From NCBI GenBank assembly GCA_964543385.1, contig CAZIYE010000001.1:422755-486754 (forward strand): a DNA stretch of 64,000 nt. Reading direction: 5' to 3'. Below the pieces are notes generated by a model. It had not been told where the DNA came from. It saw nothing but the letters and a program-made list of their open reading frames with translations, and ran no database searches. A program made the position numbers and the translations under genes. Below are positions 7,101 through 61,200 of this stretch, piece after piece (positions within the stretch are counted from its first letter, which is position 1; each line of letters starts with the position of its first letter). This DNA comes from an uncultured Candidatus Saccharibacteria bacterium (GTDB taxonomy: Bacteria > Patescibacteriota > UBA1384 > XYA2-FULL-43-10 > 1-14-0-10-43-13).

Positions 7101-8797
7101 GTGTGATTAGCAGTTACATTGGTAAAGTTATATGAACTTACAGCACCGACAGATGAACCGTTTACTCGAACATCAGAGATATGATAGCCGTCATTCGATG
7201 TGACGGTGTAAGATTGAGAACCATTTGTAGCTACACTGGTCGTTCCAGGAGGCGAGATTGTACCATTAGCGCCAGAAGAAGCTGTGATAGAATAATCACC
7301 CGCAGTAGTTACCACAAAGGGATAATTTGTCGTGCCTCCATTTGTAGTTATAATACAGGATCCAGCACCTATTGCTGCGCCAACTGGCACAGTAAGTATA
7401 ATAGACGTATTTGTCCATGTAGTAGGAGAACCTGCTACGGCTCCTATGGATATGGTTGAATTTCCTTGATTCAAGCCAAAATCAGTACCAGTAATCACGA
7501 CAATGTCACCAACATCTCCATTCGACGGATCTATTGATGTAATCGCGGGGACATTAGGCGTATTATAATGAACCGTCATAGCATCAAATATGGGAGTGAC
7601 TGTGGTATCTTCTGTAATAAGAATTATCTTTATCTGAGCATAACGTCCAGTTGGGACAATATGGTTTATGCCAATTACAAAAGTACTGGCTTGGTGGTTG
7701 GCATCTTCGCTCCACTCAGCAGCAGATAAACCGGCTTCAGTATCAGCTGCCCTTAGCCGGACTTCGAAATCAGTATTGGTGGGGACTGTCACAGTCCAGT
7801 CAGCATAATTCCAGTATGTACCGCTAAGACCTGAATCATAAGTAGTAATGGCAGTACCTACAGAAGAGAAAGCCGGGAAGGTGCCAGCTGTATTAACCCC
7901 ACTTAAGATATCATTATAAAGAGCAGAATTACCCGATACATCACTTGGATAGAAGCCCATGCCCCCCTGCATTACAGCAGCATTGATGGTGTGGTCAGAT
8001 ATAGAAGAAGCTGCTAATTGCAAAACAGCCGAAGTAATTGGCCCCGAAAGAATAGATGGATCTATAATGATAAAAGCTCTCTCGCCTTTTCCACCATAGT
8101 TTCCAATGTATCCAACCGTAGTCATCCCTCCTCGTGTCCCATCAGAGTAAACGTTGAATAAGTCAGACGTCACGCTTGGCAATGTAATTGTACCATTATC
8201 AGTAATAATCCTAATCGAACTATCGCGAGCCCCGTCAGTGCCAATCCAACTCTCCTCATCAGCATTTTCAGCCGAATCTTTAAAACCAATAATGACCAAC
8301 TCTTCATTTTCTTTAGCATAATTCATCCGCTGAATAAAGGCACAACTTAGAGTAATATCTTTAGAACCACCATCAGCGGTGAAATCAGCTGCTGCTAGTG
8401 AAGGCTCAGTAATATTTCCTACAGCGGTTGGACAACCACCATCAAGCTGAAAAAATCCCTGGGTTAATGGAGTGCCATTATCGACACCGCTTAGATCAAA
8501 ATTCGATAAATCAATAGTATCGTCCCAAGTTTTAGTCAGGGAGGCAGCCTTTAAATGCTGTTGCGGATTTGATATCAAGACAGCGGTAAATAATGAAAAA
8601 ACGACTAAACTGAAAAATAAAAACACCCAATGACTAGTCCTAGCAATTGGATTGATATGCCATCTATAATACCAGCGGAAATGCATCCTCAAAAAATTAT
8701 GCAGCTTTGATGCCCAAGGCATCAAAGCTTTAGTACTTCGCTGAATACGAATTAACTTTTTATCTAACTCTTGGATATTAATTTGAGATGATGTCAT
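4154..8797 (-). CDS. Giant surface protein: N-terminal TM anchor, IPT/TIG domain, at least 6 tandem Ig-like (InlB-B-repeat-like) domains, about 550-aa Cys-containing C-terminal domain
   Basis: 1547 aa. A single hydrophobic helix (WVFLFFSLVVFSLFTAVLI) near the N-terminus. IPT/TIG-like segment (PAITSIDPSNGDVGDIVVITGTDFG...). About 78-aa repeats with the pattern G.NG.I..PG......Y.....YTFT...GY.I..V.VDG.......Y.F.NV..NHTI...F repeated at least 6 times. Confidence 0.8.
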   Translation of the reverse strand: MTSSQINIQELDKKLIRIQRSTKALMPWASKLHNFLRMHFRWYYRWHINPIARTSHWVFLFFSLVVFSLFTAVLISNPQQHLKAASLTKTWDDTIDLSNFDLSGVDNGTPLTQGFFQLDGGCPTAVGNITEPSLAAADFTADGGSKDITLSCAFIQRMNYAKENEELVIIGFKDSAENADEESWIGTDGARDSSIRIITDNGTITLPSVTSDLFNVYSDGTRGGMTTVGYIGNYGGKGERAFIIIDPSILSGPITSAVLQLAASSISDHTINAAVMQGGMGFYPSDVSGNSALYNDILSGVNTAGTFPAFSSVGTAITTYDSGLSGTYWNYADWTVTVPTNTDFEVRLRAADTEAGLSAAEWSEDANHQASTFVIGINHIVPTGRYAQIKIILITEDTTVTPIFDAMTVHYNTPNVPAITSIDPSNGDVGDIVVITGTDFGLNQGNSTISIGAVAGSPTTWTNTSIILTVPVGAAIGAGSCIITTNGGTTNYPFVVTTAGDYSITASSGANGTISPPGTTSVATNGSQSYTVTSNDGYHISDVRVNGSSVGAVSSYNFTNVTANHTISATFDINTYTITATTGSNGSITSPGATVVNWDSSKTYTFTSENHYHIGEVLVDGVSNSGAIAAGFYTFSDISANHTVSVVYTRDTYAITATAGQNGSILTPGVTMVGYDYSKLYTFTPNNGYLIYQVLVDGVNNPTAVADSSYWFDNVDSNHTIAVTFIIRTYSINAVLGSNGAISSPGITYVSYGQSKTYTFTPAVNYHIETLVVDANPVDLVSSYTFSNISGDHSIYVSFAINTYTISINKAGNGDGTFDKTIPYTVVNMGDILLIKATAAISSVEFNPNTDWSGCDSIESDLCKLDNIISNRTVIATFKLKTFTIKSTAGVNGLITPAGVKTVNYGDSQSYLVTAALGYNIRDVRIDGATNNAAVSSGSYAFTSIIADHTIDAAFATMHTVTGMIDPASNARASINPSNQQIAPGGNVNFMVILIDAGSEIVSWTGCMPTTPTASTCSITNIDANHDVVVKVRKRIFTVIVSSVNDPVSRTDLGSINGVNPLTQVVNYGDSAIISTMPENNSIVVWNGCTDISTDGYQCTVSNVTSDKTVTATFRPKQIRLNVQKDLNSVITDADTASQIEQIKAKTRGGVLGWVDSKINDVKSLWRDQVNLTNAYKLGRQTIEGITELESNATSILTRLGAGLFGNTVPDRPGAMRIIANSDGTTTTVTVLPNGSREVTINDRRGGLVSRQIIGISPCSNTDIINKAVLGDKVGVAQCVNIACQENPRSPQCTVRKVTSITDKLTSLFNFDIIPKFNQTLVSRGLTLSSAQIDTAAAIGSLDNFYNNLMVTFIPDRLETYKNNQLALAKRNPFGTTDPNGVVTLDYGSNKEIVAKASRNFLIQSMAAPDCEAPRYFDDSGRPTTDIKSTKEGKMICRNLTSDKEIKVNFKLIVSFGAFVNAVGDDAMAWVKNQISTINDFWNIMVMGKGDRTQYFLNHILSPILDGVWGFFRDNILTGVVTDYFNTQKGNLRLGTSWSITIFSWSW
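5900..7200 (-). repeat. Degenerate tandem coding repeats (about 234-bp unit) encoding the Ig-like repeat array of the giant protein
   Basis: Periodicity seen at protein level (ISPPG/ITSPG/ILTPG/ISSPG ... NHTI..TF). Boundaries approximate. Confidence 0.55.
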
Positions 8798-26317: not shown

Positions 26318-28639
26318 ATGAACAAGACAGAACTAGCTAAAATTTTAGCTAGCAAAATCAAAAAAGACCCGAAAGTTGCCGAAAAAATGATCAATTCTTT
26401 TGGCGATACTGTTACTGAAGTATTATCAAAAGGCGGCAAAATCGTCTATTCTAACTTCGGTACTTTTTATACTGTTCATTATCCATCTAAGGTTATTTAC
26501 CATCCAACGCTTGGCACTAAGAAAAAAATGATCATGTTACCTACAAATGCAGTCAAATGGATGCCATCAGGTAATATTAAAGATATGGTAAATTCCGGCA
26601 AAGAAATCGAGGGAGCGACAACTTTTGGCGCCAGCAAAAAAATTAAGGATCTGCATCTCAACCCCGCAGTAGAAGAAACTATAATTGATAATACAAAAGA
26701 TATGGATAAAAGCCAGGAAATTGGTGGTTCATTGACATATTCTAGCTCAGAGCATGAAGATCAAGAGGAAGTTGAAATCCCTATCCGTAATATTTCAAAG
26801 AATAAAATCGAGGATAATACGACTATTGATGATAAGAAAGCTACTCCGGCAGTAGAAGACAAAGATGGTTTCTGGGATCAACTATTTAAAAAAGCAAACG
26901 ACGATTCCAAAAATATCGACCAAAGCAAAAAAATAGAGACAGATAGTATAGATAGCAAAAATGATAAATCACCCTCAGTCGGATTGGGCTTGTTTGGTGC
27001 CAATACGTCGTCGAAACAAGAAATCAAAGCCCCTACTCCTAATGTCATAGATGGTCAAAATATCGAGCCAGAAGAAGAAAGCCTATCTCCTTACATAAAC
27101 AGAAAAACTTCCATCTCATATATCGACTTATCCAAGACGACAGTACCCAAAGAAATCTTACAAATGATTTCAGAAAAAATTGCCAGAGAATATAAAATTG
27201 TTCCAGTCGAAGATAGTAATGATGGACTAGTGGTTGGCATGGTCGACCCAGAAGATATTGAAGCAATAGAGATTGTGAAAAAGATTATCGGCAAAAAGGT
27301 TTTGCCAAAGCTGACAACTGAAACTGACCTAAACCACGTTTTGGACCAATACCAAGGTTTCGAAAGTGAGGTGAAGGAAGCGATTGAAGATGTTGAAGAT
27401 AAAGATCATAAAAAAGAAGAAGATCAAAAATCTGCGTCGATAATATCAAGCTCCGCGCCAGCATCTAGGATTGTTAGTTCGCTATTAAAACGAGCCATTA
27501 GAGATAAGGCATCAGACATACATATAGAACCATATGAGGATGAAGTGACTGTACGTTTTCGTATTGATGGCGTCCTACATAAGAAAGTATCTCTGCCAAA
27601 AGATATTCAGCAAGCAGTAGTTTCACGCATCAAAATTTTATCAAACCTAAAAATAGACGAGCAACGTCTACCACAAGATGGACGCTTTAGTATTATGGCA
27701 GACAACCGTAAAGTTGATTTTCGTGTCTCAACCATGCCAATTGCAAATGGCGAAAAAGTAGTTATGAGAATCTTGGATAAGCTCTCAGGGATAATTTCAA
27801 TTGATGACCTAGGCTTTCGAGAAAGAGATTTTTCTCTTATCAATAATAGCTGCCAAAAATCTCATGGAATGATCTTAGTAACTGGCCCTACTGGATCGGG
27901 CAAGACAACAACTCTTTACGCCCTGATACAGAAAATATACAGCGAAGGTATTAATATCATTACTTTAGAGGACCCTATCGAATACCAAATCCCCGGCATT
28001 AATCAGAGCCAGGTGAATGCGGAAATAGATTACACTTTTGCCTCCGGCCTGCGCTCCATTTTACGTCAAGACCCGGATGTCGTTATGATTGGAGAGATAA
28101 GAGATAGAGAAACAGCTGAGATGGCCGTACACGCAGCCTTGACTGGTCATGTTGTTCTTTCCACACTTCATACCAATGATTCTGCAGGCGCAATTCCTAG
28201 ATTAGTAGATATGAATATAGAACCATTTCTATTAAATTCATCTCTAAATCTGATTCTAGCCCAAAGATTAGCGAGAAGAATTTGTGATTCCTGCAAAGAA
28301 GAAATAAATCCATCCCAAGACCAATTAAAACTAATTAAGAATGAATTAGACAAAATGCCCCGTGAAGAAAAGGCAAAAATCGGTAATAAAATTAAATTTT
28401 ACAAGGGCAAGGGCTGTAAAGATTGTTCCAATACTGGATATAAAGGCAGAATAGGAATTTATGAAGTGCTTGAAGTTGATAAGAAGATAAAAGATTTAGT
28501 CGCCAATAAAGCGTCGTCGAATGGGATTGAGGAGAGTGCTATTCAAAATGGCATGACGACAATGATACAAGATGGAATTTTAAAAGCAATCAGCGGTCTT
28601 ACTACAATTGAAGAAGTATGGAGGGTCACCAAGGAATAA
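26318..28639 (+). CDS. pilB: Type IV pilus assembly ATPase PilB/GspE with an N-terminal HU/IHF-like DNA-binding domain and an acidic low-complexity linker
   Basis: AAGGAG RBS. Residues 1-95 (MNKTELAKILASK...FGTFYTVHYPSKVIYHPTLGTKKKMIMLPTNAVKWMPSGNIKDMV) match the HU-fold pattern (MNK.EL...FGTF...P.TG..I.I...P.F..G...KD.V). About 165-aa D/E/K/S-rich linker. GspE_N domain. Walker A GPTGSGKTTT, His box, tetracysteine CDSC...CKDC. One uninterrupted 773-codon frame. Confidence 0.85.
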   Translation: MNKTELAKILASKIKKDPKVAEKMINSFGDTVTEVLSKGGKIVYSNFGTFYTVHYPSKVIYHPTLGTKKKMIMLPTNAVKWMPSGNIKDMVNSGKEIEGATTFGASKKIKDLHLNPAVEETIIDNTKDMDKSQEIGGSLTYSSSEHEDQEEVEIPIRNISKNKIEDNTTIDDKKATPAVEDKDGFWDQLFKKANDDSKNIDQSKKIETDSIDSKNDKSPSVGLGLFGANTSSKQEIKAPTPNVIDGQNIEPEEESLSPYINRKTSISYIDLSKTTVPKEILQMISEKIAREYKIVPVEDSNDGLVVGMVDPEDIEAIEIVKKIIGKKVLPKLTTETDLNHVLDQYQGFESEVKEAIEDVEDKDHKKEEDQKSASIISSSAPASRIVSSLLKRAIRDKASDIHIEPYEDEVTVRFRIDGVLHKKVSLPKDIQQAVVSRIKILSNLKIDEQRLPQDGRFSIMADNRKVDFRVSTMPIANGEKVVMRILDKLSGIISIDDLGFRERDFSLINNSCQKSHGMILVTGPTGSGKTTTLYALIQKIYSEGINIITLEDPIEYQIPGINQSQVNAEIDYTFASGLRSILRQDPDVVMIGEIRDRETAEMAVHAALTGHVVLSTLHTNDSAGAIPRLVDMNIEPFLLNSSLNLILAQRLARRICDSCKEEINPSQDQLKLIKNELDKMPREEKAKIGNKIKFYKGKGCKDCSNTGYKGRIGIYEVLEVDKKIKDLVANKASSNGIEESAIQNGMTTMIQDGILKAISGLTTIEEVWRVTKE

Positions 28640-32233: not shown

Positions 32234-32614
32234 TCACCTCAAAGATAAAGACTTCTCAATAGCATCTATAACTTGAGCCGGCATTATTTCACTTTTGATA
32301 AGATATTGATCATACGGCTTCATCATATTTTTGATCTTATTTATTTCTTGTACAAGTGCTGTCAACAATATTACTGGGATATTAGCTGTTTTTTCATCCT
32401 CCCGAATCTTCTTCATGACATCAATACCATTAATCTTTGGCATCATAATGTCTAACAAAATGACATCAGGCATATCTTTGTATACCTTCTCAATAGCCTC
32501 TTCGCCATCATAAGCAGAAACAATGCTATATCCCTCTGCTCTTAGCCTTTCAGCATACATCTCGTGCAAAGTCATATCGTCATCTACTAATAGAATTTTA
32601 GCGCTGGTTGCCAT
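32234..32614 (-). CDS. Standalone response-regulator receiver domain (CheY/PilH-like)
   Basis: ILLVDDD ... D at position about 55 (LLDIMMP) ... K near the C-terminus; 126 aa, no output domain. Confidence 0.85.
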   Translation of the reverse strand: MATSAKILLVDDDMTLHEMYAERLRAEGYSIVSAYDGEEAIEKVYKDMPDVILLDIMMPKINGIDVMKKIREDEKTANIPVILLTALVQEINKIKNMMKPYDQYLIKSEIMPAQVIDAIEKSLSLR

Positions 32615-32622
32615 TTTGCCTC

Positions 32623-33753
32623 CTAATCAGGTTTTTGATAAATTACGTAGTCAAATAAATCATACAACGTACCGGATTGGCGGTCAATATTAGCACTGAT
32701 AGTTCTCGTAGCACCGCTATAATAACCCGTTGAGATAATATTTGTAACTGGACCAGGAATTACGTTGGTTTTTGTTTGGTTCAAGCAGGTTAAACTAGTA
32801 GCACACTGCATCGTAGATAACCCGATATAAGCGTCGTAAAATAAAGGTTTCATGGAGAGAGTTACTTTTGCAGGAGCAACTATGGGTTTTGTGCCAAATT
32901 GGGATTCAAATACAGAAATTAAATTATCCTTATGCCAAACAATATCACCATTAGAAATACTGTTTGCTATTATTAGTTCATTTGGACAGCTAAGATCAGC
33001 TCCCCTGCCAAGGACTACGCAAGTGCTAGCTGCAGTCGCTGATGTTATAATTGTTTTATATTCCCTGATATCCGTTCCTGTCCCAGTATAGTCAACTGTC
33101 AATTTTGCATACATTATAGCTTTCTTCTGGAAGTCAGGATCAGGAGATGCAGGGCTCAAATATTTTGTCATTATTCTTATATCATTGTTTATGCCAGAAT
33201 CAGCAAAATTGAGTTTACTTAAATCTATTTTGTAAGTTTCATCCCTCATCATTTTAAGAAATCCGTACTTGCCGCTACCATAGTTAGGGTCGAGAAGATC
33301 GATGGTGTTAAATGCTTCATCACCGTTAATATTATGACCATAAAGTGGAATAGATATGGTTCCGGCGAATCCCATCCTTAAATCATAAACCTGTTGATTT
33401 ATATAAGTAGATGAGATTGTAGTGGTCTTGGCTATTCCACCATAACCTGTGCCACGTGTAGTAATTGGTGATGGCACGTTAAGATATGATCTAAAAACCA
33501 TATTTTCACCGACTTTCCAATCATAAGTAGCTGTGCCATCGCCATAAGGAATCTCTGCATTTCTATCATATCTGTATCTCAGGAAACCTTCCTCTATGCC
33601 GGACTCAGCTGCATAATAAGCACTAATACCATTTTCTGTAATACTGGCATTTCTGGATTCAATCAGAAATATACGGCCAAAAGAAAAAGCCAAACCGCCA
33701 ATAGCTGCGACTAAGAATACTGCGATTACGATAGCTGAACCCCTCTGTTTCAT
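32623..33753 (-). CDS. PilX-like minor pilin / pilus-associated protein with N-terminal TM
   Basis: MKQRGSAIVIAVFLVAAIGGLAFSF resembles PilX_N. AAAGAGG RBS before the ATG at 33753; the ORF-track start at 33867 is less likely. Confidence 0.55.
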   Translation of the reverse strand: MKQRGSAIVIAVFLVAAIGGLAFSFGRIFLIESRNASITENGISAYYAAESGIEEGFLRYRYDRNAEIPYGDGTATYDWKVGENMVFRSYLNVPSPITTRGTGYGGIAKTTTISSTYINQQVYDLRMGFAGTISIPLYGHNINGDEAFNTIDLLDPNYGSGKYGFLKMMRDETYKIDLSKLNFADSGINNDIRIMTKYLSPASPDPDFQKKAIMYAKLTVDYTGTGTDIREYKTIITSATAASTCVVLGRGADLSCPNELIIANSISNGDIVWHKDNLISVFESQFGTKPIVAPAKVTLSMKPLFYDAYIGLSTMQCATSLTCLNQTKTNVIPGPVTNIISTGYYSGATRTISANIDRQSGTLYDLFDYVIYQKPD

Positions 33754-33846
33754 CTCGGCCTCTTTATTTAAGTAAATTATAATCGAAATAAGAAAAGTTT
33801 GCAAAAGGTTATCAATCCAAAAGAATTTGGGTATAATGTTGATACC

Positions 33847-35130
33847 ATGAGAAAAAATCAAAGCCACCTTACCTGGGAAGCTATCACTTGGATATTGATT
33901 ATCGCTCTCACTCTAACCACAGTGATATTTTTTCCGTGGTATATAGCCGGCAATGTATTGAGTATTATTCTTGGGATAGCAGTTGCCGCTACAGTTTTTT
34001 GGTATTTCAAAAGCAGACAGCTGTATTTGGAAAGTCAAGATAAGAGTAAAAAAATCTTGGCAGATCAAAAAGAAATTAAAAACCACCAAAAGACAATTGA
34101 TCTGATTTATGAAAACTCCGCCGATGGTATTCTGATATTGGACAATGAACAAAGGATAGAAAGCTTTTCCCCAGGCATGGAAAATATTACGGGATATGAG
34201 TCTCGTGAAGTTATTGGACTATTAGCAAAACAGGTTCTAAAATTTCGTGCGGAAAAAGGAGAAAGTCTTTTGCCGGATCTAATGTTTTTGCCAAAAGACA
34301 TCAGAAAAAGACCTTATTCAAAAAGCTATATCACAACAAAAGAAGGGCGAGAAATAACTGTTGAGGCAAGTTACACCTCTATAAAAACAAAGGACGAACA
34401 CAAAGCGATGGCTATTATCCGTGATGTTACTTATGCTGAAGATTTAGTGACGCGCGACAAGGAATTTATTGCCATTACATCTCATCAAATGAACACCCCT
34501 CTTTCAATAATGCGTGGCTATCTTTCTATGCTAATTAATGGCAAGGCCGGTAAAATTTCTGAAAATCAAAAAAAATATTTACAGGAGGTATATGATTCTA
34601 CCAAGAAGCTTATATCCCTCACTAATAATCTACTATCGATATCAAGAATTGAGCAGGAAAAAGTTGTAATCGAAAAATCAGAATTATCAACTAAAGATCT
34701 AGCTGCGCAACTCCGGAAGAATGCGAATACAGAGGCTATAAGCAAAGAAGTTTCTCTGGAAATAGAAATGCCCGAGCCAGACTTTATTTTCTATGCAGAT
34801 GAAGCAAAACTAGTCCAAGCATTATCAAACCTCATCGATAACGCTATAAAATATACAAAAAAAGGCAAAATAAAAGTTTCCTTCAGCAAGAAAAGTGATT
34901 CTGTCACTATTTGTATCAGTGACACTGGTATCGGTATCCCTGACGCCGACACCGAAAAGATTGGGGAGAAATTTTACAGATCTCAAAATGCTATTGATAC
35001 TGACAATAAGGGTACTGGTTTAGGATTATTCATTGCAAGAACTATAATTGAAAAACACAATGGACAAATACAACTCAGTAGCAAAATAAATTCAGGAACA
35101 AAAATAACAATAAACTTACCAGTGAGGTGA
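33847..35130 (+). CDS. Sensor histidine kinase (2 TM, PAS, HisKA, HATPase_c)
   Basis: H-box ITSHQMNTPL, N/G1/G2 boxes (NLIDNAIKYT, DTGIGIP, GTGLGLFIA). Start taken at the ATG at 33847; the upstream TTG at 33799 is less likely. Confidence 0.85.
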   Translation: MRKNQSHLTWEAITWILIIALTLTTVIFFPWYIAGNVLSIILGIAVAATVFWYFKSRQLYLESQDKSKKILADQKEIKNHQKTIDLIYENSADGILILDNEQRIESFSPGMENITGYESREVIGLLAKQVLKFRAEKGESLLPDLMFLPKDIRKRPYSKSYITTKEGREITVEASYTSIKTKDEHKAMAIIRDVTYAEDLVTRDKEFIAITSHQMNTPLSIMRGYLSMLINGKAGKISENQKKYLQEVYDSTKKLISLTNNLLSISRIEQEKVVIEKSELSTKDLAAQLRKNANTEAISKEVSLEIEMPEPDFIFYADEAKLVQALSNLIDNAIKYTKKGKIKVSFSKKSDSVTICISDTGIGIPDADTEKIGEKFYRSQNAIDTDNKGTGLGLFIARTIIEKHNGQIQLSSKINSGTKITINLPVR

Positions 35131-35504
35131 ATATGAACATGAGAGACAAAAATATTTTAATAATTGACGATGAAGAACCAATACTTAGAATGTATTCTGC
35201 TTCGTTAAGTGAATACAATATTTTGACTGCTTCAAACGGAGAAGAGGGATTGGCAGTCGCAAAATCCGAGAAACCAGATCTGATTTATCTTGATATTATC
35301 ATGCCTAAGATAAACGGCTTGGATGTACTCAAAAAACTGAAAGATGATGATCAGACAAAGGAAATCCCTGTCATTCTCCTAACAAACTTGCCAGAGGAAG
35401 CGTCAAAAGACAAAGCCGAGGCGCTCGGCGCATATGATTACTTCGTAAAGGTTAATTATGAACCAGAAGACCTCCTCGAAGCGACAAAGAAGATATTGAA
35501 ATAA
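35127..35504 (+). CDS. Standalone response-regulator receiver domain
   Basis: ILIIDDEE ... LDIIMPKINGLDVL ... K; 125 aa; 4-bp overlap with the kinase gene. Confidence 0.85.
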   Translation: MNMNMRDKNILIIDDEEPILRMYSASLSEYNILTASNGEEGLAVAKSEKPDLIYLDIIMPKINGLDVLKKLKDDDQTKEIPVILLTNLPEEASKDKAEALGAYDYFVKVNYEPEDLLEATKKILK

Positions 35505-53843: not shown

Positions 53844-54551
53844 CTAAATATTTCTCGTCACCACAGCTCCATATATCCTCTTAGCCCCTGCTTGTTTTAA
53901 AATCCTGGCACATTCGCTAAGAGTAGCTCCTGTTGTAAAAACATCATCAATCAACAATATATTCTTACCAAAAACAAATTCATTATCATCACATTTGAAG
54001 GCGTCTATCATATTATTATATCTACCACTTCTTTGTAATTTTACTTGATTCTTAGTATTTTTAATTCTTATTAACGCATCAGCACCAGATATGCATAGCC
54101 TTTTAGATAAATACCTTGCAATTAATTCAGATTGGTTGAACCCACGTATGTTATATTTTAGGCGATGCAAAGGAACGGGAACTATCACTATATCGGTTGG
54201 AATATCCATATTTTTAATACGCTGATAGATTAGTTCTCCACATATGTCAGATAGACCGGTAAGCCCATGATATTTAAAGCTTTTTATCAGCTGCTTAACT
54301 ATGAGCGAATGATAGCTAGTCGCAACATATACCGAGAAAAGATGACTGTTATTTTTATTCCTGCAACGAGGACAAAACCTTGAATTTACCGATATTCTTC
54401 CACACCCAGGACAGGTTGAAGTGGCTGTTTTTTCTACGTTAGAAAGGCAATTGCAACATAAGAGATACCCATATTCTCCACAAAATATACACTTGTTTGG
54501 AAAGAATAAATTTATAATATTTTCGTAGGTTTTATTTAGCCAAAGGTGCAT
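53844..54551 (-). CDS. comF: ComF-family protein (N-terminal zinc ribbon plus phosphoribosyltransferase domain)
   Basis: CxxC...CxxC...CxxC zinc finger, PRT motif ILLIDDVFTTGATL; 235 aa. Confidence 0.7.
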   Translation of the reverse strand: MHLWLNKTYENIINLFFPNKCIFCGEYGYLLCCNCLSNVEKTATSTCPGCGRISVNSRFCPRCRNKNNSHLFSVYVATSYHSLIVKQLIKSFKYHGLTGLSDICGELIYQRIKNMDIPTDIVIVPVPLHRLKYNIRGFNQSELIARYLSKRLCISGADALIRIKNTKNQVKLQRSGRYNNMIDAFKCDDNEFVFGKNILLIDDVFTTGATLSECARILKQAGAKRIYGAVVTRNI

Positions 54552-54690: not shown

Positions 54691-55065
54691 ATGATGAAAG
54701 ATGGGGGCCAAGATTGGCTTTCAGATGAAACCGAGGGACAGCTTTCTGTAGATGTTTACCATGATGAGCATAGCATCTATATCTTAGCCCCTATTGCTGG
54801 CGTCAAAGCATCTGACGTCGATATTTCTATTACTGACGAAGTTGTTACAGTAAAAGGCAATAGGACCCCTGGCCATGAGTTCGATGATGATAAACATTTC
54901 ACACAAGAATGTTATTGGGGCCCATTTTCCCGCTCTTATGTATTACCTATCGCTGTAAACTCCGAAAGCGCTAAGGCAACACTAAAAGATGGTTTGCTTC
55001 GGATTGAAATACCAAAAGACGAAAAAGTTAAAACTAAAGTTATAAAGATTAATGAGTCGAAATAA
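54691..55065 (+). CDS. Hsp20/alpha-crystallin small heat-shock protein
   Basis: ACD core (ITDEVVTVKG ... GLLRIEIPK) with I-x-I-like C-terminus; 124 aa. Confidence 0.85.
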   Translation: MMKDGGQDWLSDETEGQLSVDVYHDEHSIYILAPIAGVKASDVDISITDEVVTVKGNRTPGHEFDDDKHFTQECYWGPFSRSYVLPIAVNSESAKATLKDGLLRIEIPKDEKVKTKVIKINESK

Positions 55066-56110: not shown

Positions 56111-57487
56111 ATGAAACACTTTTTCAAAATTTCTAGCTATATCCTAATAGCAATATTTTTTTCTATTGCGCTTTCCGGCTGTACAAAGAAGGACAAAGAA
56201 GATCCAAAAGCTAAAGAGATTATCGTTTGGAGTTTTGAAGACGAAGATATTTGGAAGCCTGTAGCCAAGACATTTGCTACAAAGTACAAAGGCTATAAAC
56301 TGATCTATCAGAAACAAACATTTGACTCTGATTATGAGAATCGTGTATTAAATTCTATTTTATCTAATCAAGGTCCAGACGTCTGGAATATGCCCAGTGA
56401 CTGGGTTTACAGACACAAAGACAAGTTAGCTTCTATCTCTAAGAAGGGGATTGGCATAGATAAATATATCCAATCTATCAATCAATCGGTGACATTTGAT
56501 GAAAAAGTTTACGCTCTTTCTCCATATGCAGAACCATTGATGGTATATTACAACCCAAAAATATTTGAGAATGCCCTCCGTGAATATAACGATGCAAATA
56601 CAGGATCTGAGAACATCGAAAACCGCAAAGAAGCAAGCAGACTCCTGAGAGAGGTTCCTCAAACATGGACCGATTTTATAAAAACAGTCAATTTAATAAC
56701 AAAGATAGATCAAGACAACCAATTTGAAATTTCTGGGGTAGCAATGGGAACAGATAAAATATCAAATTCTGCTGACATCCTTTACCTTTTAATGCTAGAA
56801 AATGAGACCAAAATATTGTCAGATAATTTAAAACAAGCAAATTTTAATCTGCCGGTAGACACCGCACAAGAAACAAAAGATATACCAGGACTTAGAGCAT
56901 TAGAGTTTTATACCTCATTTTCTGATCCATCCAGTGAGAATTATTCTTGGGATGACTCCTTGGGAAATGATATTGAGGCTTTTGTAGAAGGCAAAACGGC
57001 AATGATTTTTGGCTATAGTTCACTTCAGAATCACCTCTCGCAGAAATACCCAAATTTTAGATATAAAAGAGCTTTTACTCCGCAGCTAACTGCAGAATCA
57101 TCCAAGGTAGTAGACTATGCTAAAAGTAATGTCTTCGCTGTAACTGCCTTAACCTCTAAATATGCCGAGAAGCCAAAGGCATGTTGGAATCTTCTTAATA
57201 TATTATCTAGTGAATCCCCCGCAGATAGCTTTAATTCTGCGCTCAAAGTTCATACATCAATAAAAGCTTCTGGTGATGTAGATTTTGGAGACAGAAATAC
57301 CAATAGCCCTGAAAAAGTTTCTCTTGCCACTGCAAAATCTCTGGTTAAAGGAAGGGACCCGGTAGAATTTGATAGGATCATAAGACAGAGCATAGCCGCA
57401 GTCAATCAAGGGGATCAAGATCTACAATCAGCGCTAGACACAGCAGCAAGAGACATTACAGATATTCTTCGTAAAGAAAATTGGTAA
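56111..57487 (+). CDS. Lipoprotein, extracellular solute-binding-protein-like (SBP family 1?), first gene of the operon containing the small two-TM paralogs
   Basis: Lipobox ALSGC after the signal peptide; mixed alpha/beta sequence of SBP size (458 aa); no adjacent permease. Confidence 0.5.
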   Translation: MKHFFKISSYILIAIFFSIALSGCTKKDKEDPKAKEIIVWSFEDEDIWKPVAKTFATKYKGYKLIYQKQTFDSDYENRVLNSILSNQGPDVWNMPSDWVYRHKDKLASISKKGIGIDKYIQSINQSVTFDEKVYALSPYAEPLMVYYNPKIFENALREYNDANTGSENIENRKEASRLLREVPQTWTDFIKTVNLITKIDQDNQFEISGVAMGTDKISNSADILYLLMLENETKILSDNLKQANFNLPVDTAQETKDIPGLRALEFYTSFSDPSSENYSWDDSLGNDIEAFVEGKTAMIFGYSSLQNHLSQKYPNFRYKRAFTPQLTAESSKVVDYAKSNVFAVTALTSKYAEKPKACWNLLNILSSESPADSFNSALKVHTSIKASGDVDFGDRNTNSPEKVSLATAKSLVKGRDPVEFDRIIRQSIAAVNQGDQDLQSALDTAARDITDILRKENW

Positions 57488-57493
57488 AAACTG

Positions 57494-57904
57494 ATGGGTA
57501 AAGAAATGTCAAAAAATAAAAAGACGAATCATCGCCTTAAAATTATAACCATGTTTATAATTGCGGCTTTCTTAATTTCGATAGCTCTTGTCTTTTTATT
57601 TCCTGAGTTTGAAGCGAGTAGCAGTGATGTTTTACCTTCTGGGATTGATCTGGGTGCTCCTATTCCAGGCTCTGGAGCAACTAGCAATTTCTTTGAATAT
57701 GTTACTGCTATAGTTGCATTCTGTACTAATATTCTTGGGCCAGTACTCGCGATAGCAATGATTATTTATGGAGGATATCGATACATCTTCTCCCAAGGAG
57801 ATAGCACCGCCTTGACAGAAGGAAAAGACATTATCTTCGGCGCTATTATTGGCTATGCGATTCTTTTTCTGACAAAACTCATAATAAATATTATTGGGGT
57901 TTAA
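57494..57904 (+). CDS. VirB2/TrbC-like two-TM small protein, paralog 1 (candidate pilin)
   Basis: N-terminal signal/TM, then two hydrophobic helices separated by a short K/G-rich loop (..ILGPVLAIAMIIYGGYRYIFSQGD...KDIIFGAIIGYAILFL..). Confidence 0.55.
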   Translation: MGKEMSKNKKTNHRLKIITMFIIAAFLISIALVFLFPEFEASSSDVLPSGIDLGAPIPGSGATSNFFEYVTAIVAFCTNILGPVLAIAMIIYGGYRYIFSQGDSTALTEGKDIIFGAIIGYAILFLTKLIINIIGV

Positions 57905-57912
57905 CTATATTA

Positions 57913-58275
57913 ATGAAAAAAGTTATTATTGAAAAAATATACTATGCCTCGTTACTAACAATAGTAATACTAGCGTCTTTTTCAACTGCAAAGGCTGCCA
58001 CAGGCATCGAGATTAATAGTGGATCGAGCATGGATAGCCTGCCCGCTATATTAGAATGGCTTATAAATGTATTTTTAGTTGGAATTTTAGGAATAATTGC
58101 CTTTGTTGCATTCCTTGTTGGAGGATTTATGTATCTTCTAGCTGGTTCAGACGCTGCTAAAGCCGAAAAAGGGAAGAAGACTTTAGCTTATGCTGTCACA
58201 GGCATGATTTTAGCAATTTTCTCTTATTCTTTCACTTCCATAATAGTAGATATTTTGAATAATATTTTCCAATGA
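57913..58275 (+). CDS. VirB2/TrbC-like two-TM small protein, paralog 2
   Basis: Same architecture as paralog 1 (GILGIIAFVAFLVGGFMYLLAGSD..KAEKGKK..VTGMILAIFSY). Confidence 0.55.
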   Translation: MKKVIIEKIYYASLLTIVILASFSTAKAATGIEINSGSSMDSLPAILEWLINVFLVGILGIIAFVAFLVGGFMYLLAGSDAAKAEKGKKTLAYAVTGMILAIFSYSFTSIIVDILNNIFQ

Positions 58276-58610
58276 TCAAATTAATAGAAAAAGTAAGTGC
58301 AGAAGTAAAAGTTAATTCCGATCCCATGCCAGATGGGATACTTGGTTTTGTCCGTCAATTTGGTGGTACAGAGGCAAGCTTGGGTTCCGTAGTAGCAATG
58401 ATAGAGAAAGCGATTGAAGTAGGGCTCACTTTTGCCGGTGTCTTTGCTTTAATAATGTTTTTGTGGGGAGCATTCGACTATATGTTTTCTTTAGGTGATG
58501 ACGAAAAAGTTAAAAAATCTAGCCAAACCATGCTTTGGTCATTCATAGGTCTTGTAATTATTGCTGCTGCGCGTACAATATTAAATAGAGTAATTGATTT
58601 ATTAAAATGA
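58272..58610 (+). CDS. VirB2/TrbC-like two-TM small protein, paralog 3
   Basis: Same architecture; 4-bp overlap with paralog 2. Confidence 0.55.
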   Translation: MIKLIEKVSAEVKVNSDPMPDGILGFVRQFGGTEASLGSVVAMIEKAIEVGLTFAGVFALIMFLWGAFDYMFSLGDDEKVKKSSQTMLWSFIGLVIIAAARTILNRVIDLLK

Positions 58611-58614
58611 GGAG

Positions 58615-58941
58615 GTGTTAATGAGTTTTATTATCAAAGCATTGGCAGCCAATGATGATGTGAATACTGACAATCTTGGCCTTCAGCTCGTTGGTGGTGC
58701 TAGTGATATCCAGGGGTTGATAACGGCAGTTTTGCCATGGGTAAGTTTAGCAGCAGGTGTAATTGCATTTGCTTATCTAATTTATTCAGGCTTCCTTTAT
58801 CTTTCAGCCGGTGGTAATGCCGAGTCTGCAAAGAAGGGCCAACAAGGAATTCTAAATGCAATTATTGGTTTGATTATTATTGCATTGGCCTACACTATCA
58901 CCACTGCTCTGGTTGGAACATTCAATAATACCACCAGTTAA
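58615..58941 (+). CDS. VirB2/TrbC-like two-TM small protein, paralog 4
   Basis: LAAGVIAFAYLIYSGFLYLSAGGNAESAKKGQQGILNAIIGLIIIALAY; GGAGG RBS. Confidence 0.55.
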   Translation: MLMSFIIKALAANDDVNTDNLGLQLVGGASDIQGLITAVLPWVSLAAGVIAFAYLIYSGFLYLSAGGNAESAKKGQQGILNAIIGLIIIALAYTITTALVGTFNNTTS

Positions 58942-58962
58942 TTCTAGCCATAAAGTCTTACA

Positions 58963-58998
58963 AAAAGCCCTTAAGTAGTGATGCTAAGGGGCTTTTTT
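58963..58998 (+). terminator. Intrinsic terminator after paralog 4 (AAAGCCCTTA ... TAAGGGGCTTTTTT)
   Basis: Hairpin with a one-base bulge, then T6. Confidence 0.6.
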
Positions 58999-59061
58999 AG
59001 TAGAAGTTGGCAATATAGCTAATGAATAAATAGTCAGGAGTTTTAAAATAAAAACAAACAT

Positions 59062-59361
59062 ATGATCACTGCCGAAAATATAAAAAATTTGTTTGTCCCA
59101 ATAATAAATCAGACTGTGACCGCGGAACAGCTTGTAGCTTCAATAGCCAATATTGCTGCTTCTGTTGCTGGTATAATAGCCTTCTTTTATCTTTTATATG
59201 CCGGACTATTATATATAACTTCTGGTAATAATCCAGATCAAGCAAAAAGAGCCCAGGCAGCTATTGCAAATGTTATTATAGGAATTATTGTTATTGCGCT
59301 ATCTTATCTTGTGATTAGAGTTATAGGTAATTTTGCAATAACGATAATTCAACCTAAATAG
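59062..59361 (+). CDS. VirB2/TrbC-like two-TM small protein, paralog 5 (own transcription unit)
   Basis: SVAGIIAFFYLLYAGLLYITSGNNPDQAKRAQAAIANVIIGIIVIALSY. Confidence 0.55.
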   Translation: MITAENIKNLFVPIINQTVTAEQLVASIANIAASVAGIIAFFYLLYAGLLYITSGNNPDQAKRAQAAIANVIIGIIVIALSYLVIRVIGNFAITIIQPK

Positions 59362-59363
59362 AA

Positions 59364-61010
59364 TTATGATTTGGTTACTCTCCAAACTTCTTCAATAGTA
59401 GTAGAGCCGGAAAGAGCTTTTATTAGACCATCTTGCTCCATTGTTATAATCCCTGTTTTGGCTGCACATTTTTCAAACTCTGATATAGAAGCGCTTGCAG
59501 CTATCAACTTTTCTATCTCTTCATTTGGTACTAAAATTTCCACCATGACTTGGCGGCCAGAGAACCCGGTTGTATTACACCTTTCGCATCCCTTGCCTCT
59601 GATCAATTTGACGTATTTATGGCTAATAAGTTCTAAAATATTTTTAGGAAGTCTATCAGAGATTCTGCTTAATGTTTCGACAACCGCTTGCCATGTCTGA
59701 GGCGCTGGAGAATATTCTTCCTTGCAATAAGGACAAATTTTTCTAATTAAACGCTGTGCCATAATAAGATTGATTGATCCTGATAATAAGAATGGTTTTA
59801 CTCCTATTTCAAGTAATCTTGCAAAAACTGAAGGCGCTGAATTCGCATGAATTGTAGATAAAAGCAAATGACCAGTTAAGGCAGCTTGTACAGCAATTTC
59901 TGCCGTTTCTTGGTCGCGTATCTCTCCGACCATTAAAATGTCAGGATCTTGGCGCAAGGAGGCTCGTAGACCATCTGCAAATTCATATCCTTGATTTGGA
60001 CGGACCTGACTTTGCTCTATTCCCTCAATTTTGTATTCTACGGGATCTTCTAAAGTAATGATTTTAACCCCTGGCTTCTTTACCTCCATTAAAAAAGCAT
60101 ACAAAGTTGATGATTTACCGCTACCAGTCGGTCCAGAAGTCATAATCATGCCATGAGGCTTAGATATGGCCTCCTTTATTGCTGCTAATGCGTCAGGTCT
60201 GAATCCAAGATTATCTAGCCTGAGAATAGATTTCTCTTGACCCAAAAGACGTAATACTATAGATTCGCCATAAGCAGACGGCATGATAGAAACTCTAAAA
60301 TCTATTTTTTCACTAGGAGAAGAAAAAGAGAATCTACCATCCTGAGGTTCATTAGATATATCCATTCGCAAGCTAGACAAGAATTTAATCCTTGAGACCA
60401 ATTGCTTATGATATTGTAATGGCAAAACGACAACATCCTGTAGGACGCCATCGATTCTAAATCTTACCAAGAACTCTGTTTCTGATGGTTCCAGATGTAT
60501 ATCAGAAGCGTTCAATTTCATAGCGCCAAGTAGGACAACATCTAAAAGTTTTGTCGTGTTGGCTTTCTTGGCAGCATCGGCAGCAGATTTAATATCTGTT
60601 ACTTTAATATCGTCATATTCTTTTACTTTTTGTTGCTCTTTTTTCTCGACTTCAGCAATTTTACTTTTATCTGACTCGTAACATGAAATACCATAATAAA
60701 GACTGGTTTGAGACATTAATACCATTGTAATAGTTATCCCTGTTTTCTGTCCCAAAGCTTTCAGATATTGAGTCATTTCAGAATCGTCTGGATTCATCAC
60801 TCCAATCTTTACCTCATTACCGGTTTTTAGATAGGGGACTACATGGTACCTTATAGCCATTTCTTCTGGAACAAGATCAAGGACATCTTTTACTATCGGA
60901 TAGTTTGCTAAAGAGACATAAGACAAATTATGCTTTTTGGCACGCTCGATTGTGTGCTGTTCTTCTTGTTCTCTATTAAGATAATAAAGTGTGTCATTTA
61001 TATCAGTCAT
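59364..61010 (-). CDS. Second PilB/GspE-family secretion ATPase (T2SSE_N plus ATPase plus tetracysteine)
   Basis: GspE_N domain, Walker A SGPTGSGKSSTL, His box, CPYC...CERC; 548 aa; convergent with the paralog array at a 2-bp gap. Confidence 0.85.
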   Translation of the reverse strand: MTDINDTLYYLNREQEEQHTIERAKKHNLSYVSLANYPIVKDVLDLVPEEMAIRYHVVPYLKTGNEVKIGVMNPDDSEMTQYLKALGQKTGITITMVLMSQTSLYYGISCYESDKSKIAEVEKKEQQKVKEYDDIKVTDIKSAADAAKKANTTKLLDVVLLGAMKLNASDIHLEPSETEFLVRFRIDGVLQDVVVLPLQYHKQLVSRIKFLSSLRMDISNEPQDGRFSFSSPSEKIDFRVSIMPSAYGESIVLRLLGQEKSILRLDNLGFRPDALAAIKEAISKPHGMIMTSGPTGSGKSSTLYAFLMEVKKPGVKIITLEDPVEYKIEGIEQSQVRPNQGYEFADGLRASLRQDPDILMVGEIRDQETAEIAVQAALTGHLLLSTIHANSAPSVFARLLEIGVKPFLLSGSINLIMAQRLIRKICPYCKEEYSPAPQTWQAVVETLSRISDRLPKNILELISHKYVKLIRGKGCERCNTTGFSGRQVMVEILVPNEEIEKLIAASASISEFEKCAAKTGIITMEQDGLIKALSGSTTIEEVWRVTKS

Positions 61011-61110: not shown

Positions 61111-61200
61111 GGAAGGTTGGCAGAGTGGTTTATAGCGCTGGTCTCGAACACCAGTTGGGTAGCAATACCCTCAGAGGTTCAAATCCTCTACCTTCCGCCA
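61111..61200 (+). tRNA. tRNA-Ser (anticodon CGA), long variable arm
   Basis: GGAAGGTTGGCAGAGTGG ... CTCGAAC anticodon loop ... GGTTCAAATCCTCTACCTTCCGCCA. Confidence 0.85.

Follow-up and report, generated by a model that had tools for sequence, protein, structure and literature searches.

Toward the right-hand end of a 64-kb stretch of DNA (contig CAZIYE010000001.1, positions 422,755 to 486,754; "the window", whose own numbering is used throughout) lie five small genes in tandem behind a lipoprotein gene, and all five products are members of the Pfam family PF18895 (T4SS_pilin). We read the locus, with a probability of about 0.72, as the Berkelbacteria version of the origin-proximal array of VirB2-like pilins of the Patescibacteria type IV secretion system (T4SS). 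The reading is preferred because of the five PF18895 matches, the hairpin model of pilin 4, a level of identity among the paralogs like that of published arrays, synteny with Southlakia (S.) epibionticum ML1, whose array alone has been studied by experiment, and conservation of the operon in 28 loci. The locus is not new in kind: it is one lineage's version of an array already published, and shown to be essential, in related ultra-small bacteria. Its interest lies in lineage-specific details, not in the existence of the array, and in the testable predictions that these details offer to structural and imaging work on the surface filaments of Patescibacteria.

Five T4SS_pilin proteins in tandem

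The five proteins score 31.3 (pilin 1), 33.1 (pilin 2), 36.9 (pilin 3), 40.6 (pilin 4) and 38.5 bits (pilin 5) against PF18895, for which the Pfam gathering score is 26.6 bits; at E-values of 2e-7 to 3e-10 these matches are not due to chance, and membership of the family is demonstrated. PF18895 is also carried by 35 of 35 homologs of pilin 4 in precomputed annotation. The paralogs are 19-33% identical in pairwise comparison and align to the consensus ...AGVIAF..LY.GF.Y..SGG...AKKG...I..AIIG.IIIAL.Y, in agreement with the first-pass annotation (made from the sequence alone), which had described five tandem paralogs with a shared two-helix architecture and a Lys/Gly-rich loop. By hydropathy, every one of them has two strong hydrophobic helices flanking a short loop with K or R; in the AlphaFold2 model of pilin 4 the helices span residues 30-62 and 67-104, and the pLDDT (predicted local distance difference test) there is 84-95. 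A regular-expression search found no class III prepilin motif (basic leader, G, F/M-T-L-I-E) in any of the five, and none has an N_methyl match in Pfam: that these are not type IV pilins had been correctly seen from the start. Two placements had been offered instead, the VirB2/TrbC family or a new pilin-like family. The first holds at the level of the family, through PF18895 (the TrbC model itself, PF04956, stays below threshold, as detailed below). The second fails: a PF18895-type profile collects 89,809 representatives of 50%-identity clusters at E <= 0.001, and arrays of such genes in Patescibacteria are already in print (PMC7427843, PMC10633639, PMC12102498, PMC12857230).

The genes all lie on the plus strand. 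Pilin 1 (57494..57904; 136 amino acids, aa) has a basic N-terminus and a transmembrane (TM) anchor or signal at residues 17-35 ahead of its VirB2-like helical hairpin, and pilin 2 (57913..58275; 120 aa) has a Sec-type signal peptide, ending in ..STAKA before the next A, ahead of its own; by hydropathy, these two alone carry an extra N-terminal hydrophobic segment. Pilin 3 (58272..58610; 112 aa), pilin 4 (58621..58941; 106 aa) and pilin 5 (59062..59361; 99 aa) have the hairpin without a signal peptide. Pilins 3 and 4 begin with a short motif (MIKLIEKVSA and MSFIIKALA, respectively) that is missing from pilin 5. Its general form, M-x(1-4)-[LIV]-[IV]-[EQ]-[KR]-A-[YF]-A, as in MNLIEKAYA, recurs in about two-thirds of the small, non-first members of Berkelbacteria arrays; these have no Sec signal, and the motif is followed in them by a variable acidic linker and then by the hairpin. 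This M-x-L-I-E-K-A-Y-A-like sequence may be a leader or a recognition motif.

Four of the small genes are tightly packed behind the lipoprotein gene, just as first described, with intergenic distances from the lipoprotein through pilin 4 of 6, 8, -4 (an ATGA overlap of pilin 2 with pilin 3) and 10 nt. (A technical note: the map of open reading frames (ORFs) has pilin 4 at 58615-58941, 108 aa. An alternative ATG at 58621 sits behind AGGAGG and is most likely the start, which makes the protein 106 aa long; a gene call made independently on an identical public contig concurs.) Between pilin 4 and pilin 5, RNA folding finds a plus-strand hairpin at 58962..58998 that resembles an intrinsic terminator, with an A-tract before it and a U-run after it (-20.8 kcal/mol; z -2.86 against shuffles); a simple consensus terminator scan had overlooked it. 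A 120-nt spacer precedes pilin 5 and contains a weak promoter-like site at 59007-59034. Of the terminator-bounded unit that had been ascribed to pilin 5, the upstream boundary is thus present and the downstream one is not: the stop codons of pilin 5 and of the convergent ATPase gene PilB2 lie tail to tail, 2 bp apart, with no terminator between them (59359-59366). Transcripts from the two sides must therefore overlap, and antisense effects or transcriptional interference are possible at this junction. A weak terminator-like hairpin on the minus strand lies inside pilin 5 (59237-59221).

Might the small proteins have nothing to do with secretion, being holins, bacteriocin-immunity proteins, subunits of small transporters or parts of a defence system? 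Their general shape (short, with two TM helices) would allow it, and there are weak matches at the level of chance to membrane families in Pfam (E 0.03-0.6). Holins and small transporters were indeed the families that the first-pass annotation had named as fatal to its proposal. All five proteins pass PF18895 instead, none has a PHROGs or PADLOC match at E <= 0.01, and their origin-proximal chromosomal synteny is kept across the whole class with no phage or mobile-element genes. An identity of this sort is very improbable.

Fixed positions, large ectodomains and a lipoprotein in Berkelbacteria

Relatives were collected by a scan with the lipoprotein alignment, one genome per species being retained, and the resulting 28 loci (38-74% identity) were annotated by ORF calling, with a pilin hidden Markov model, and by BLAST against the window proteins. 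Pilin 4 and PilB2 have identical or near-identical copies in public assemblies, and those relatives that are named are Candidatus Berkelbacteria. Wherever the contig suffices, the same block is found: ComF(-), Hsp20(+), GalU(+), lipoprotein(+), three to six pilin-domain genes(+) and PilB2(-). In the window, its left-hand member is a ComF/GntX-like phosphoribosyltransferase (53844..54551, minus strand; DZR_2 and Pribosyltran domains are annotated on the identical gene of a public contig), the gene for which is kept in nearly all Berkelbacteria loci compared. The Hsp20 small heat-shock protein (54691..55065, plus strand), a conserved neighbour of the array, comes next, and a GalU-like nucleoside triphosphate (sugar-1-phosphate) transferase (PF00483; 55189..56073, plus strand) lies directly 5' of the operon.

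Within the array, reciprocal comparison matches the genes by position. The best match of window pilin 1 is at position 1 in 26 of 27 loci, and pilin 2 matches position 2 in most loci. Pilin 3 matches position 3; where an array has three genes, it pairs with a fused position-2 protein, in its second hairpin. The last member of the array, which is the best conserved (41-66% identity), is matched by pilin 4 and pilin 5 alike. On these comparisons the members of the array are positional orthologs across the lineage and not interchangeable copies; the anchor belongs to position 1, and a small protein occupies position 3. Pilin 5, 33% identical to pilin 4, is an older duplicate of the pilin-4 group; that group, as the most conserved, is the candidate major subunit.

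At position 2 (sometimes 1 or 3), the product in relatives is a protein of 400-1204 aa made up of a signal peptide, an ectodomain of 300-1100 aa and a C-terminal PF18895 hairpin (L005:6877-8949, L015:11753-14887, L016:7430-11044, L034:6656-9007 and others, each given as locus and position); in L034 there are two hairpins. Pfam has no match in these large ectodomains. The position-2 protein of the window is only 120 aa long, which implies that the ectodomain was lost in the window genome.

The operon's first gene (56111..57487, plus strand) encodes a 458-aa lipoprotein of the SBP_bac_1 family (PF01547, 34.2 bits against a gathering score of 26) with the lipobox LSGC, in which C24 is invariant among four orthologs. 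Its nearest solved relatives are sugar-binding proteins of ATP-binding cassette (ABC) transporters, and no ABC permease or ATPase gene stands beside it in the window or in the annotation of the public contig. Pilin 1 starts 6 nt past its stop codon; in all the Berkelbacteria loci inspected, the lipoprotein gene and the first pilin gene are in contact or overlap (the latter in L005 and L009). The lipoprotein seems to be a lineage-specific accessory of the array.

These features invite a different interpretation, in which the hairpin is a modular membrane anchor or scaffold and forms, together with the lipoprotein, a surface complex that displays ectodomains or helps to capture host-derived sugars. 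Several observations lend themselves to it: 1) Coupling of the lipoprotein to pilin 1 holds in every genome. 2) The position-2 proteins, with signal peptide, ectodomain of 300-1100 aa and C-terminal hairpin, resemble anchored surface proteins, and one of them has two hairpins. 3) A pilus of this kind has not been seen in Patescibacteria (PMC12857230). 4) The hairpins also occur in long chains: the best-scoring relatives of the pilin profile in a library of 1.84 billion proteins are single polypeptides with 2-17 tandem hairpin units, among them P0156 (820 aa, a signal peptide and eight units), P0162 (1775 aa) and P0218 (235 aa). The existence of hairpin arrays as fused polyproteins bears on whether the array proteins are true filament subunits, and such chains are hard to fit into a helical pilus unless they are cleaved. 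On the other side, both synteny and the family of the proteins connect the array with a T4SS, and the binding protein is unaccompanied by ABC permease or ATPase genes. The big heads are themselves compatible with a filament: other filament systems normally have large minor subunits that a pilin-like domain anchors (the minor pilins of type IV pili). We consider the anchor-or-scaffold interpretation unlikely, although it is the strongest of the alternatives.

A predicted partner machine and the neighbouring ATPase

What speaks against a VirB2-like array of a T4SS? The following points do, some concerning the missing machine and some the proteins themselves. No VirB4, VirB6 or PrgI gene was seen in the 64-kb window or 5 kb beyond it, within +/-10 kb of the operon in the 28 relatives, or in the 3 kb past a giant gene (introduced below) in one relative; the partner machine of the window genome has, in consequence, to be inferred. 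The N-terminal signal or TM segment that had been claimed for each of the paralogs stands for pilins 1 and 2 and falls for pilins 3-5, in which hydropathy finds no such segment and the ORFs begin at the first possible start codon, so that they cannot be extended upstream. With three of five proteins devoid of a signal peptide, the array is unlike classical VirB2 and unlike the "Sec-secreted array" of TM7x. The charge of the loop varies from -2 to +2, which makes a positive-inside topology weak. The TrbC model PF04956 (gathering score 27.9 bits) is not passed: pilins 1-3 reach 16.6, 20.8 and 16.3 bits (E 4.5e-4 to 0.012), and for pilins 4 and 5 no match was reported. An hhalign comparison of a 40-sequence Berkelbacteria profile with five plasmid VirB2/TrbC sequences (Ti-type) gave a probability of 4.8% and E 0.0083 over 38 columns, in the correct register and too weak to use; searches by fold are uninformative for a two-helix hairpin. 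And no pilus of the PF18895 type has been observed in any Patescibacterium (PMC12857230).

The PF04956 match of pilin 2 (E 4.5e-4) spans almost the whole model, and four of the five proteins match NF045849, a pilin-like family of Mycoplasma integrative and conjugative elements, along nearly all of that model too, at E 1e-8 to 3e-4 and 20-35 bits, under a curated cutoff of 40 (pilin 3, at E 1e-8, is still below it). The pilin alignment profile retrieved nothing relevant among PDB sequences. The link from PF18895 to classical VirB2 rests on the assignment made by Pfam and the literature, together with these sub-threshold scores.

Where might the machine be? It had been expected just outside the window. 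Found there instead, on an identical public contig that continues past the window's end, are dnaA, dnaN, recF, dciA and a gene of 2806 aa. The right-hand side of the window leads up to these: tRNA-Ser(CGA) (61111..61200, plus strand; an Rfam match and synteny marker) is followed by yidC, yidD, rnpA and rpmH, placing the array block 2 kb from rpmH/dnaA. (An Rfam scan of 53-64 kb reported two tRNAs and nothing else.) No VirB4 was seen in about 17 kb past the array on the origin side or in the 56 kb upstream of it, and the DNA on the window's left flank holds nothing relevant to VirB4. The giant protein encoded past dnaA-dnaN-recF-dciA (2806-2816 aa, 3160 aa in L040) has a signal peptide, C-terminal TM helices, a Cys-rich tail and no Pfam match; its gene lies at L003:13855-15362 (window-equivalent about 67.4-75.9 kb) and at L044:3053-11503.

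The order of genes in S. epibionticum ML1 provides the guide. From the origin outward it is dnaA, dnaN, recF; then, on the minus strand, 0004, PEGA, lysozyme/cysteine peptidase, M23/M15 peptidase, VirB4, 0009, PrgI, 0011, 0012 and VirB6; and then six PF18895 pilins (+), Hsp20, a ComF-type phosphoribosyltransferase, tRNA-Ser and a polytopic glycosyltransferase-like protein (PMC10633639). In L044, the giant gene is preceded by a TM + M23 peptidase gene, one for a PEGA/beta-propeller protein, and the end of one for a cysteine-peptidase-like protein. Genes of the same kinds follow virB4 in S. epibionticum, and this supports a T4SS on the origin side in Berkelbacteria also: by synteny, VirB4 and VirB6 should lie past dnaA-recF and the 2806-aa gene. 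The simplest reading of the gene orders would be a single ancestral T4SS neighbourhood next to the origin, distributed in Berkelbacteria over both of its sides, with GalU, the lipoprotein and PilB2 gained by the pilin half. In that part of PMC12102498 that was available, T4SS genes of Patescibacteria are described as often near dnaA, rnpA and rpmH, and pilin genes as near virB4 in only 1135 of 1948 assemblies (about 40% are not near). Its Table S1 offers indirect backing for such a virB4: the available part records VirB4 in two assemblies of the GTDB class UBA1384 and has no assembly under the name "Berkelbacteria"; NCBI lists a "Candidatus Berkelbacteria bacterium UBA1384", and it is by name that UBA1384 is linked to Berkelbacteria.

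Two candidates for T4SS components among the relatives were discarded. L029 has, just upstream of Hsp20, a 1243-aa TrwB/TraG-type coupling protein fused to a Replic_Relax domain (L029:2218-5949, minus strand) and a 601-aa recombinase-like gene, so judged by its N-terminal sequence (L029:6551-8356, plus strand). The pair is probably an integrated mobile element and not a core T4SS. A large ORF in L031, considered as VirB4, is a TOTE primase-helicase.

The neighbouring gene PilB2 (59364..61010, minus strand; 548 aa; T2SSE 405 bits, MshEN 41 bits) bears out the early description of a second complete PilB/GspE-type ATPase at a 2-bp gap from the array. Walker A (GPTGSGKS), Walker B (DILMVGEIRD) and the tetracysteine motif (CxxC...CxxC) are all present, and the closest solved relatives are the PilB proteins of Geobacter and Myxococcus (E about 1e-110). 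In NCBIfam it scores 490 bits as PilB and 483 as GspE, reaching neither equivalog cutoff (676 and 630), so its subfamily is left open between the two. Against the models of T4SS ATPases it stays below the cutoffs: VirB11 42 bits (cutoff 250), TrbB 50 (cutoff 305), the VirB11 type being about 330 aa long and without MshEN. PilB2 is at least 58% identical across the lineage and 43% identical to PilB1, the PilB of the pilC-pilMNO operon (26-32 kb). It adjoins the array in 22 of the 22 Berkelbacteria loci in which the contig is long enough, always convergently, and in about half of the genomes unrelated genes come between: a polytopic membrane protein of 476-495 aa, an AAA_14-like ATPase, a spermidine-synthase-like protein. 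(The polytopic protein has a C-terminal soluble domain and no Pfam match; L005:10419-11849, L007:10530-12017, and 493 aa in L028. SEML1_0023, an RgtA-like glycosyltransferase of S. epibionticum, occupies a comparable place, the likeness being one of position only.) On its far side, PilB2 is flanked in eight of the 22 genomes not by yidC but by an ORF of about 305-311 aa, which is DUF7544 in the two tested, and then by a GH1 glycosidase. That PilB2 might sit in an operon with pilus genes in these relatives was rejected on finding DUF7544 and the GH1 glycosidase as its upstream neighbours. It is an orphan: no PilC, PilM or type IV pilin gene stands beside it, and the only PilC of the window is in the pilMNO-linked operon.

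Does PilB2 power the array? One can imagine the hairpin proteins as subunits of a separate filament or secretion device that is independent of VirB4 and driven by PilB2, with pilins of the T4SS type and a motor of the type IV pilus type. The tail-to-tail arrangement, unbroken through 22 loci and maintained in the eight genomes in which yidC is replaced on the other side, is what one would then expect, as are a distinct, conserved PilB2 paralog (at least 58% identity within the lineage, 43% to PilB1) and the failure to find VirB4 near the array. Yet the two, being always convergent, are never co-transcribed; half of the genomes tolerate unrelated genes between them; the array proteins have no class III signal and the only PilC belongs to another operon. 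PilB/GspE ATPases of type II secretion systems and type IV pili act through a PilC/GspF platform on pilins with class III signals. The orthologous and essential array of S. epibionticum, moreover, lies beside VirB4/VirB6 without a PilB neighbour, and duplicated GspE/PilB sets have already been noted in the sister lineage Saccharibacteria. A PilB2-powered device is therefore improbable, somewhat more so than a membrane anchor, and the early suggestion of an ATPase dedicated to the array (convergent, of PilB and not VirB11 type, absent from the neighbourhood of the ML1 array) could not be upheld, its adjacency in 22 of 22 loci notwithstanding. Most likely PilB2 works in type IV pili or in DNA uptake, and it stays close to the array through retained synteny; from gene order it can be called a conserved neighbour, with membership in the array system unproven.

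Speculation can be taken one step further, onto shakier ground: the VirB2-like hairpin as the modular assembly or anchor domain of a surface apparatus peculiar to this lineage, led by the lipoprotein, with fixed positions, a 300-1100-aa ectodomain at one of them, a short conserved N-terminal leader in place of the Sec signal, and dependence on PilB2 instead of, or besides, VirB4. Such an apparatus would be a hybrid, with the pilins of type IV secretion and the motor of a type IV pilus. We think it a long shot, a little longer than the PilB2-powered device.

The preferred T4SS reading suggests the following course of events. The hairpins would enter the membrane so that the loop with K or R faces inward and both ends face outward, pilins 1 and 2 by way of their Sec signals and pilins 3-5 signal-less, like small hairpin proteins that depend on YidC/Sec. 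Encoded elsewhere, probably across the replication origin, a monoderm-type (MPF-FATA-derived) VirB4/VirB6/PrgI machine would extract the hairpins and assemble them into a mixed surface filament, or a conduit, for contact with the host cell. Its major subunit would be of the pilin-4/5 type; the remaining pilins would be minor or adhesive ones, with the headed position-2 protein as the adhesive or tip subunit.

The remainder of the window contributes some separate observations. PilB1 (26318-28639, plus strand), in the pilC-pilMNO operon, is a 773-aa in-frame fusion comprising, in order, an HU-type DNA-binding domain (PF00216, residues 1-92), a linker of about 170 aa, MshEN and T2SSE; DNA-binding domains are unusual on ATPases that extend pili, and this one may have to do with DNA uptake. 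Directly 3' of pilO (32234-35504) come two single-domain response regulators, a PAS histidine kinase and a 414-aa protein without a Pfam match, and these may control the type IV pilus operon. A 1547-aa protein (4154-8797, minus strand) with one IPT/TIG domain as its sole Pfam match is probably a large surface protein.

Comparison with published arrays and other systems

The array shares with VirB2/TrbC/TraA (PF04956) small size, two hydrophobic helices and a short loop with basic residues. It differs in its sub-threshold score, in lacking a long signal peptide in three of five members, and in having no adjoining virB3/virB4; the host also differs, belonging to a monoderm lineage without the outer-membrane core complex of the Gram-negative hosts. 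NF045849 (the Mbov_0395 family) is nearer in some respects, as a hairpin protein of about 80 residues from a monoderm transfer system of MPF-FATA type, and farther in others: its gene stands alone and belongs to a mobile element, where the window has a chromosomal array, and all the window scores are below its cutoff. PilB2 has the MshEN N-domain, T2SSE core and Walker and Zn-finger motifs of PilB, PilF and GspE; unlike them, it is an orphan second copy. A functional analogy can be drawn with the bindosome of Sulfolobus, in which binding proteins with class III signals are displayed with the help of the PilB-like ATPase BasE: there, too, the genes of a solute-binding protein, of pilin-like membrane proteins and of a PilB-superfamily ATPase are linked. 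In the window the binding protein is a lipoprotein, and the BasE match is 44 bits against a cutoff of 1000; no evidence of homology accompanies the analogy.

The closest counterparts are in other Patescibacteria. The "Sec-secreted array" of TM7x consists of four to six small signal-peptide proteins adjoining VirB4/VirB6 in Saccharibacteria and other members of the Candidate Phyla Radiation (McLean et al. 2020, PMC7427843). In S. epibionticum, the T4SS and a row of subunits predicted to be pilins are required for growth as an epibiont (Wang et al. 2023, PMC10633639): the six PF18895 pilins of strain ML1, SEML1_0014-0019, are all essential, as is the adjoining SEML1_0020 (Hsp20), followed by the ComF-type SEML1_0021 (PMC10633639). 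That the array might be the pilus of a monoderm T4SS is discussed in a 2025 review (PMC12857230). Window and ML1 have in common tandem same-strand genes for PF18895 proteins of 100-185 aa, a distance of a few kb to dnaA-dnaN-recF, and flanking genes for Hsp20, a ComF/GntX phosphoribosyltransferase and tRNA-Ser; as in some Berkelbacteria, a polytopic membrane protein follows the ML1 array. They differ in that VirB6, PrgI and VirB4 stand directly beside the ML1 array, while a lipoprotein (with GalU upstream) heads the window array and a PilB-type ATPase adjoins it, both of them missing from the ML1 locus. In the one genetically tractable relative, epibiotic growth requires T4SS and array. The locus described here would add comparative constraints, not a new system: the array can, we infer, be parted from virB4 by the replication origin, and in one class it shares a single operon with a sugar-binding lipoprotein.

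On a larger scale, the available portion of Quinonero-Coronel et al. (2025, PMC12102498) reports 441 arrays of 2-11 VirB2-like genes in 383 Patescibacteria assemblies, with a mean identity of 25%. The arrays of that survey and of TM7x resemble the window's in tandem pilin genes, mean identity (about 25%) and detection by PF18895/PF04956; lipoprotein coupling, PilB adjacency and big-headed members find no mention in those portions of PMC12102498 and PMC7427843 that were at hand. The same portion of the survey reads the paralogy of array members as variation in host range. Here the members are instead stable positional orthologs over 27 loci; this favours a mixed assembly whose members divide the labour over antigenic variation, and the large ectodomain at one position marks a candidate host-binding tip.

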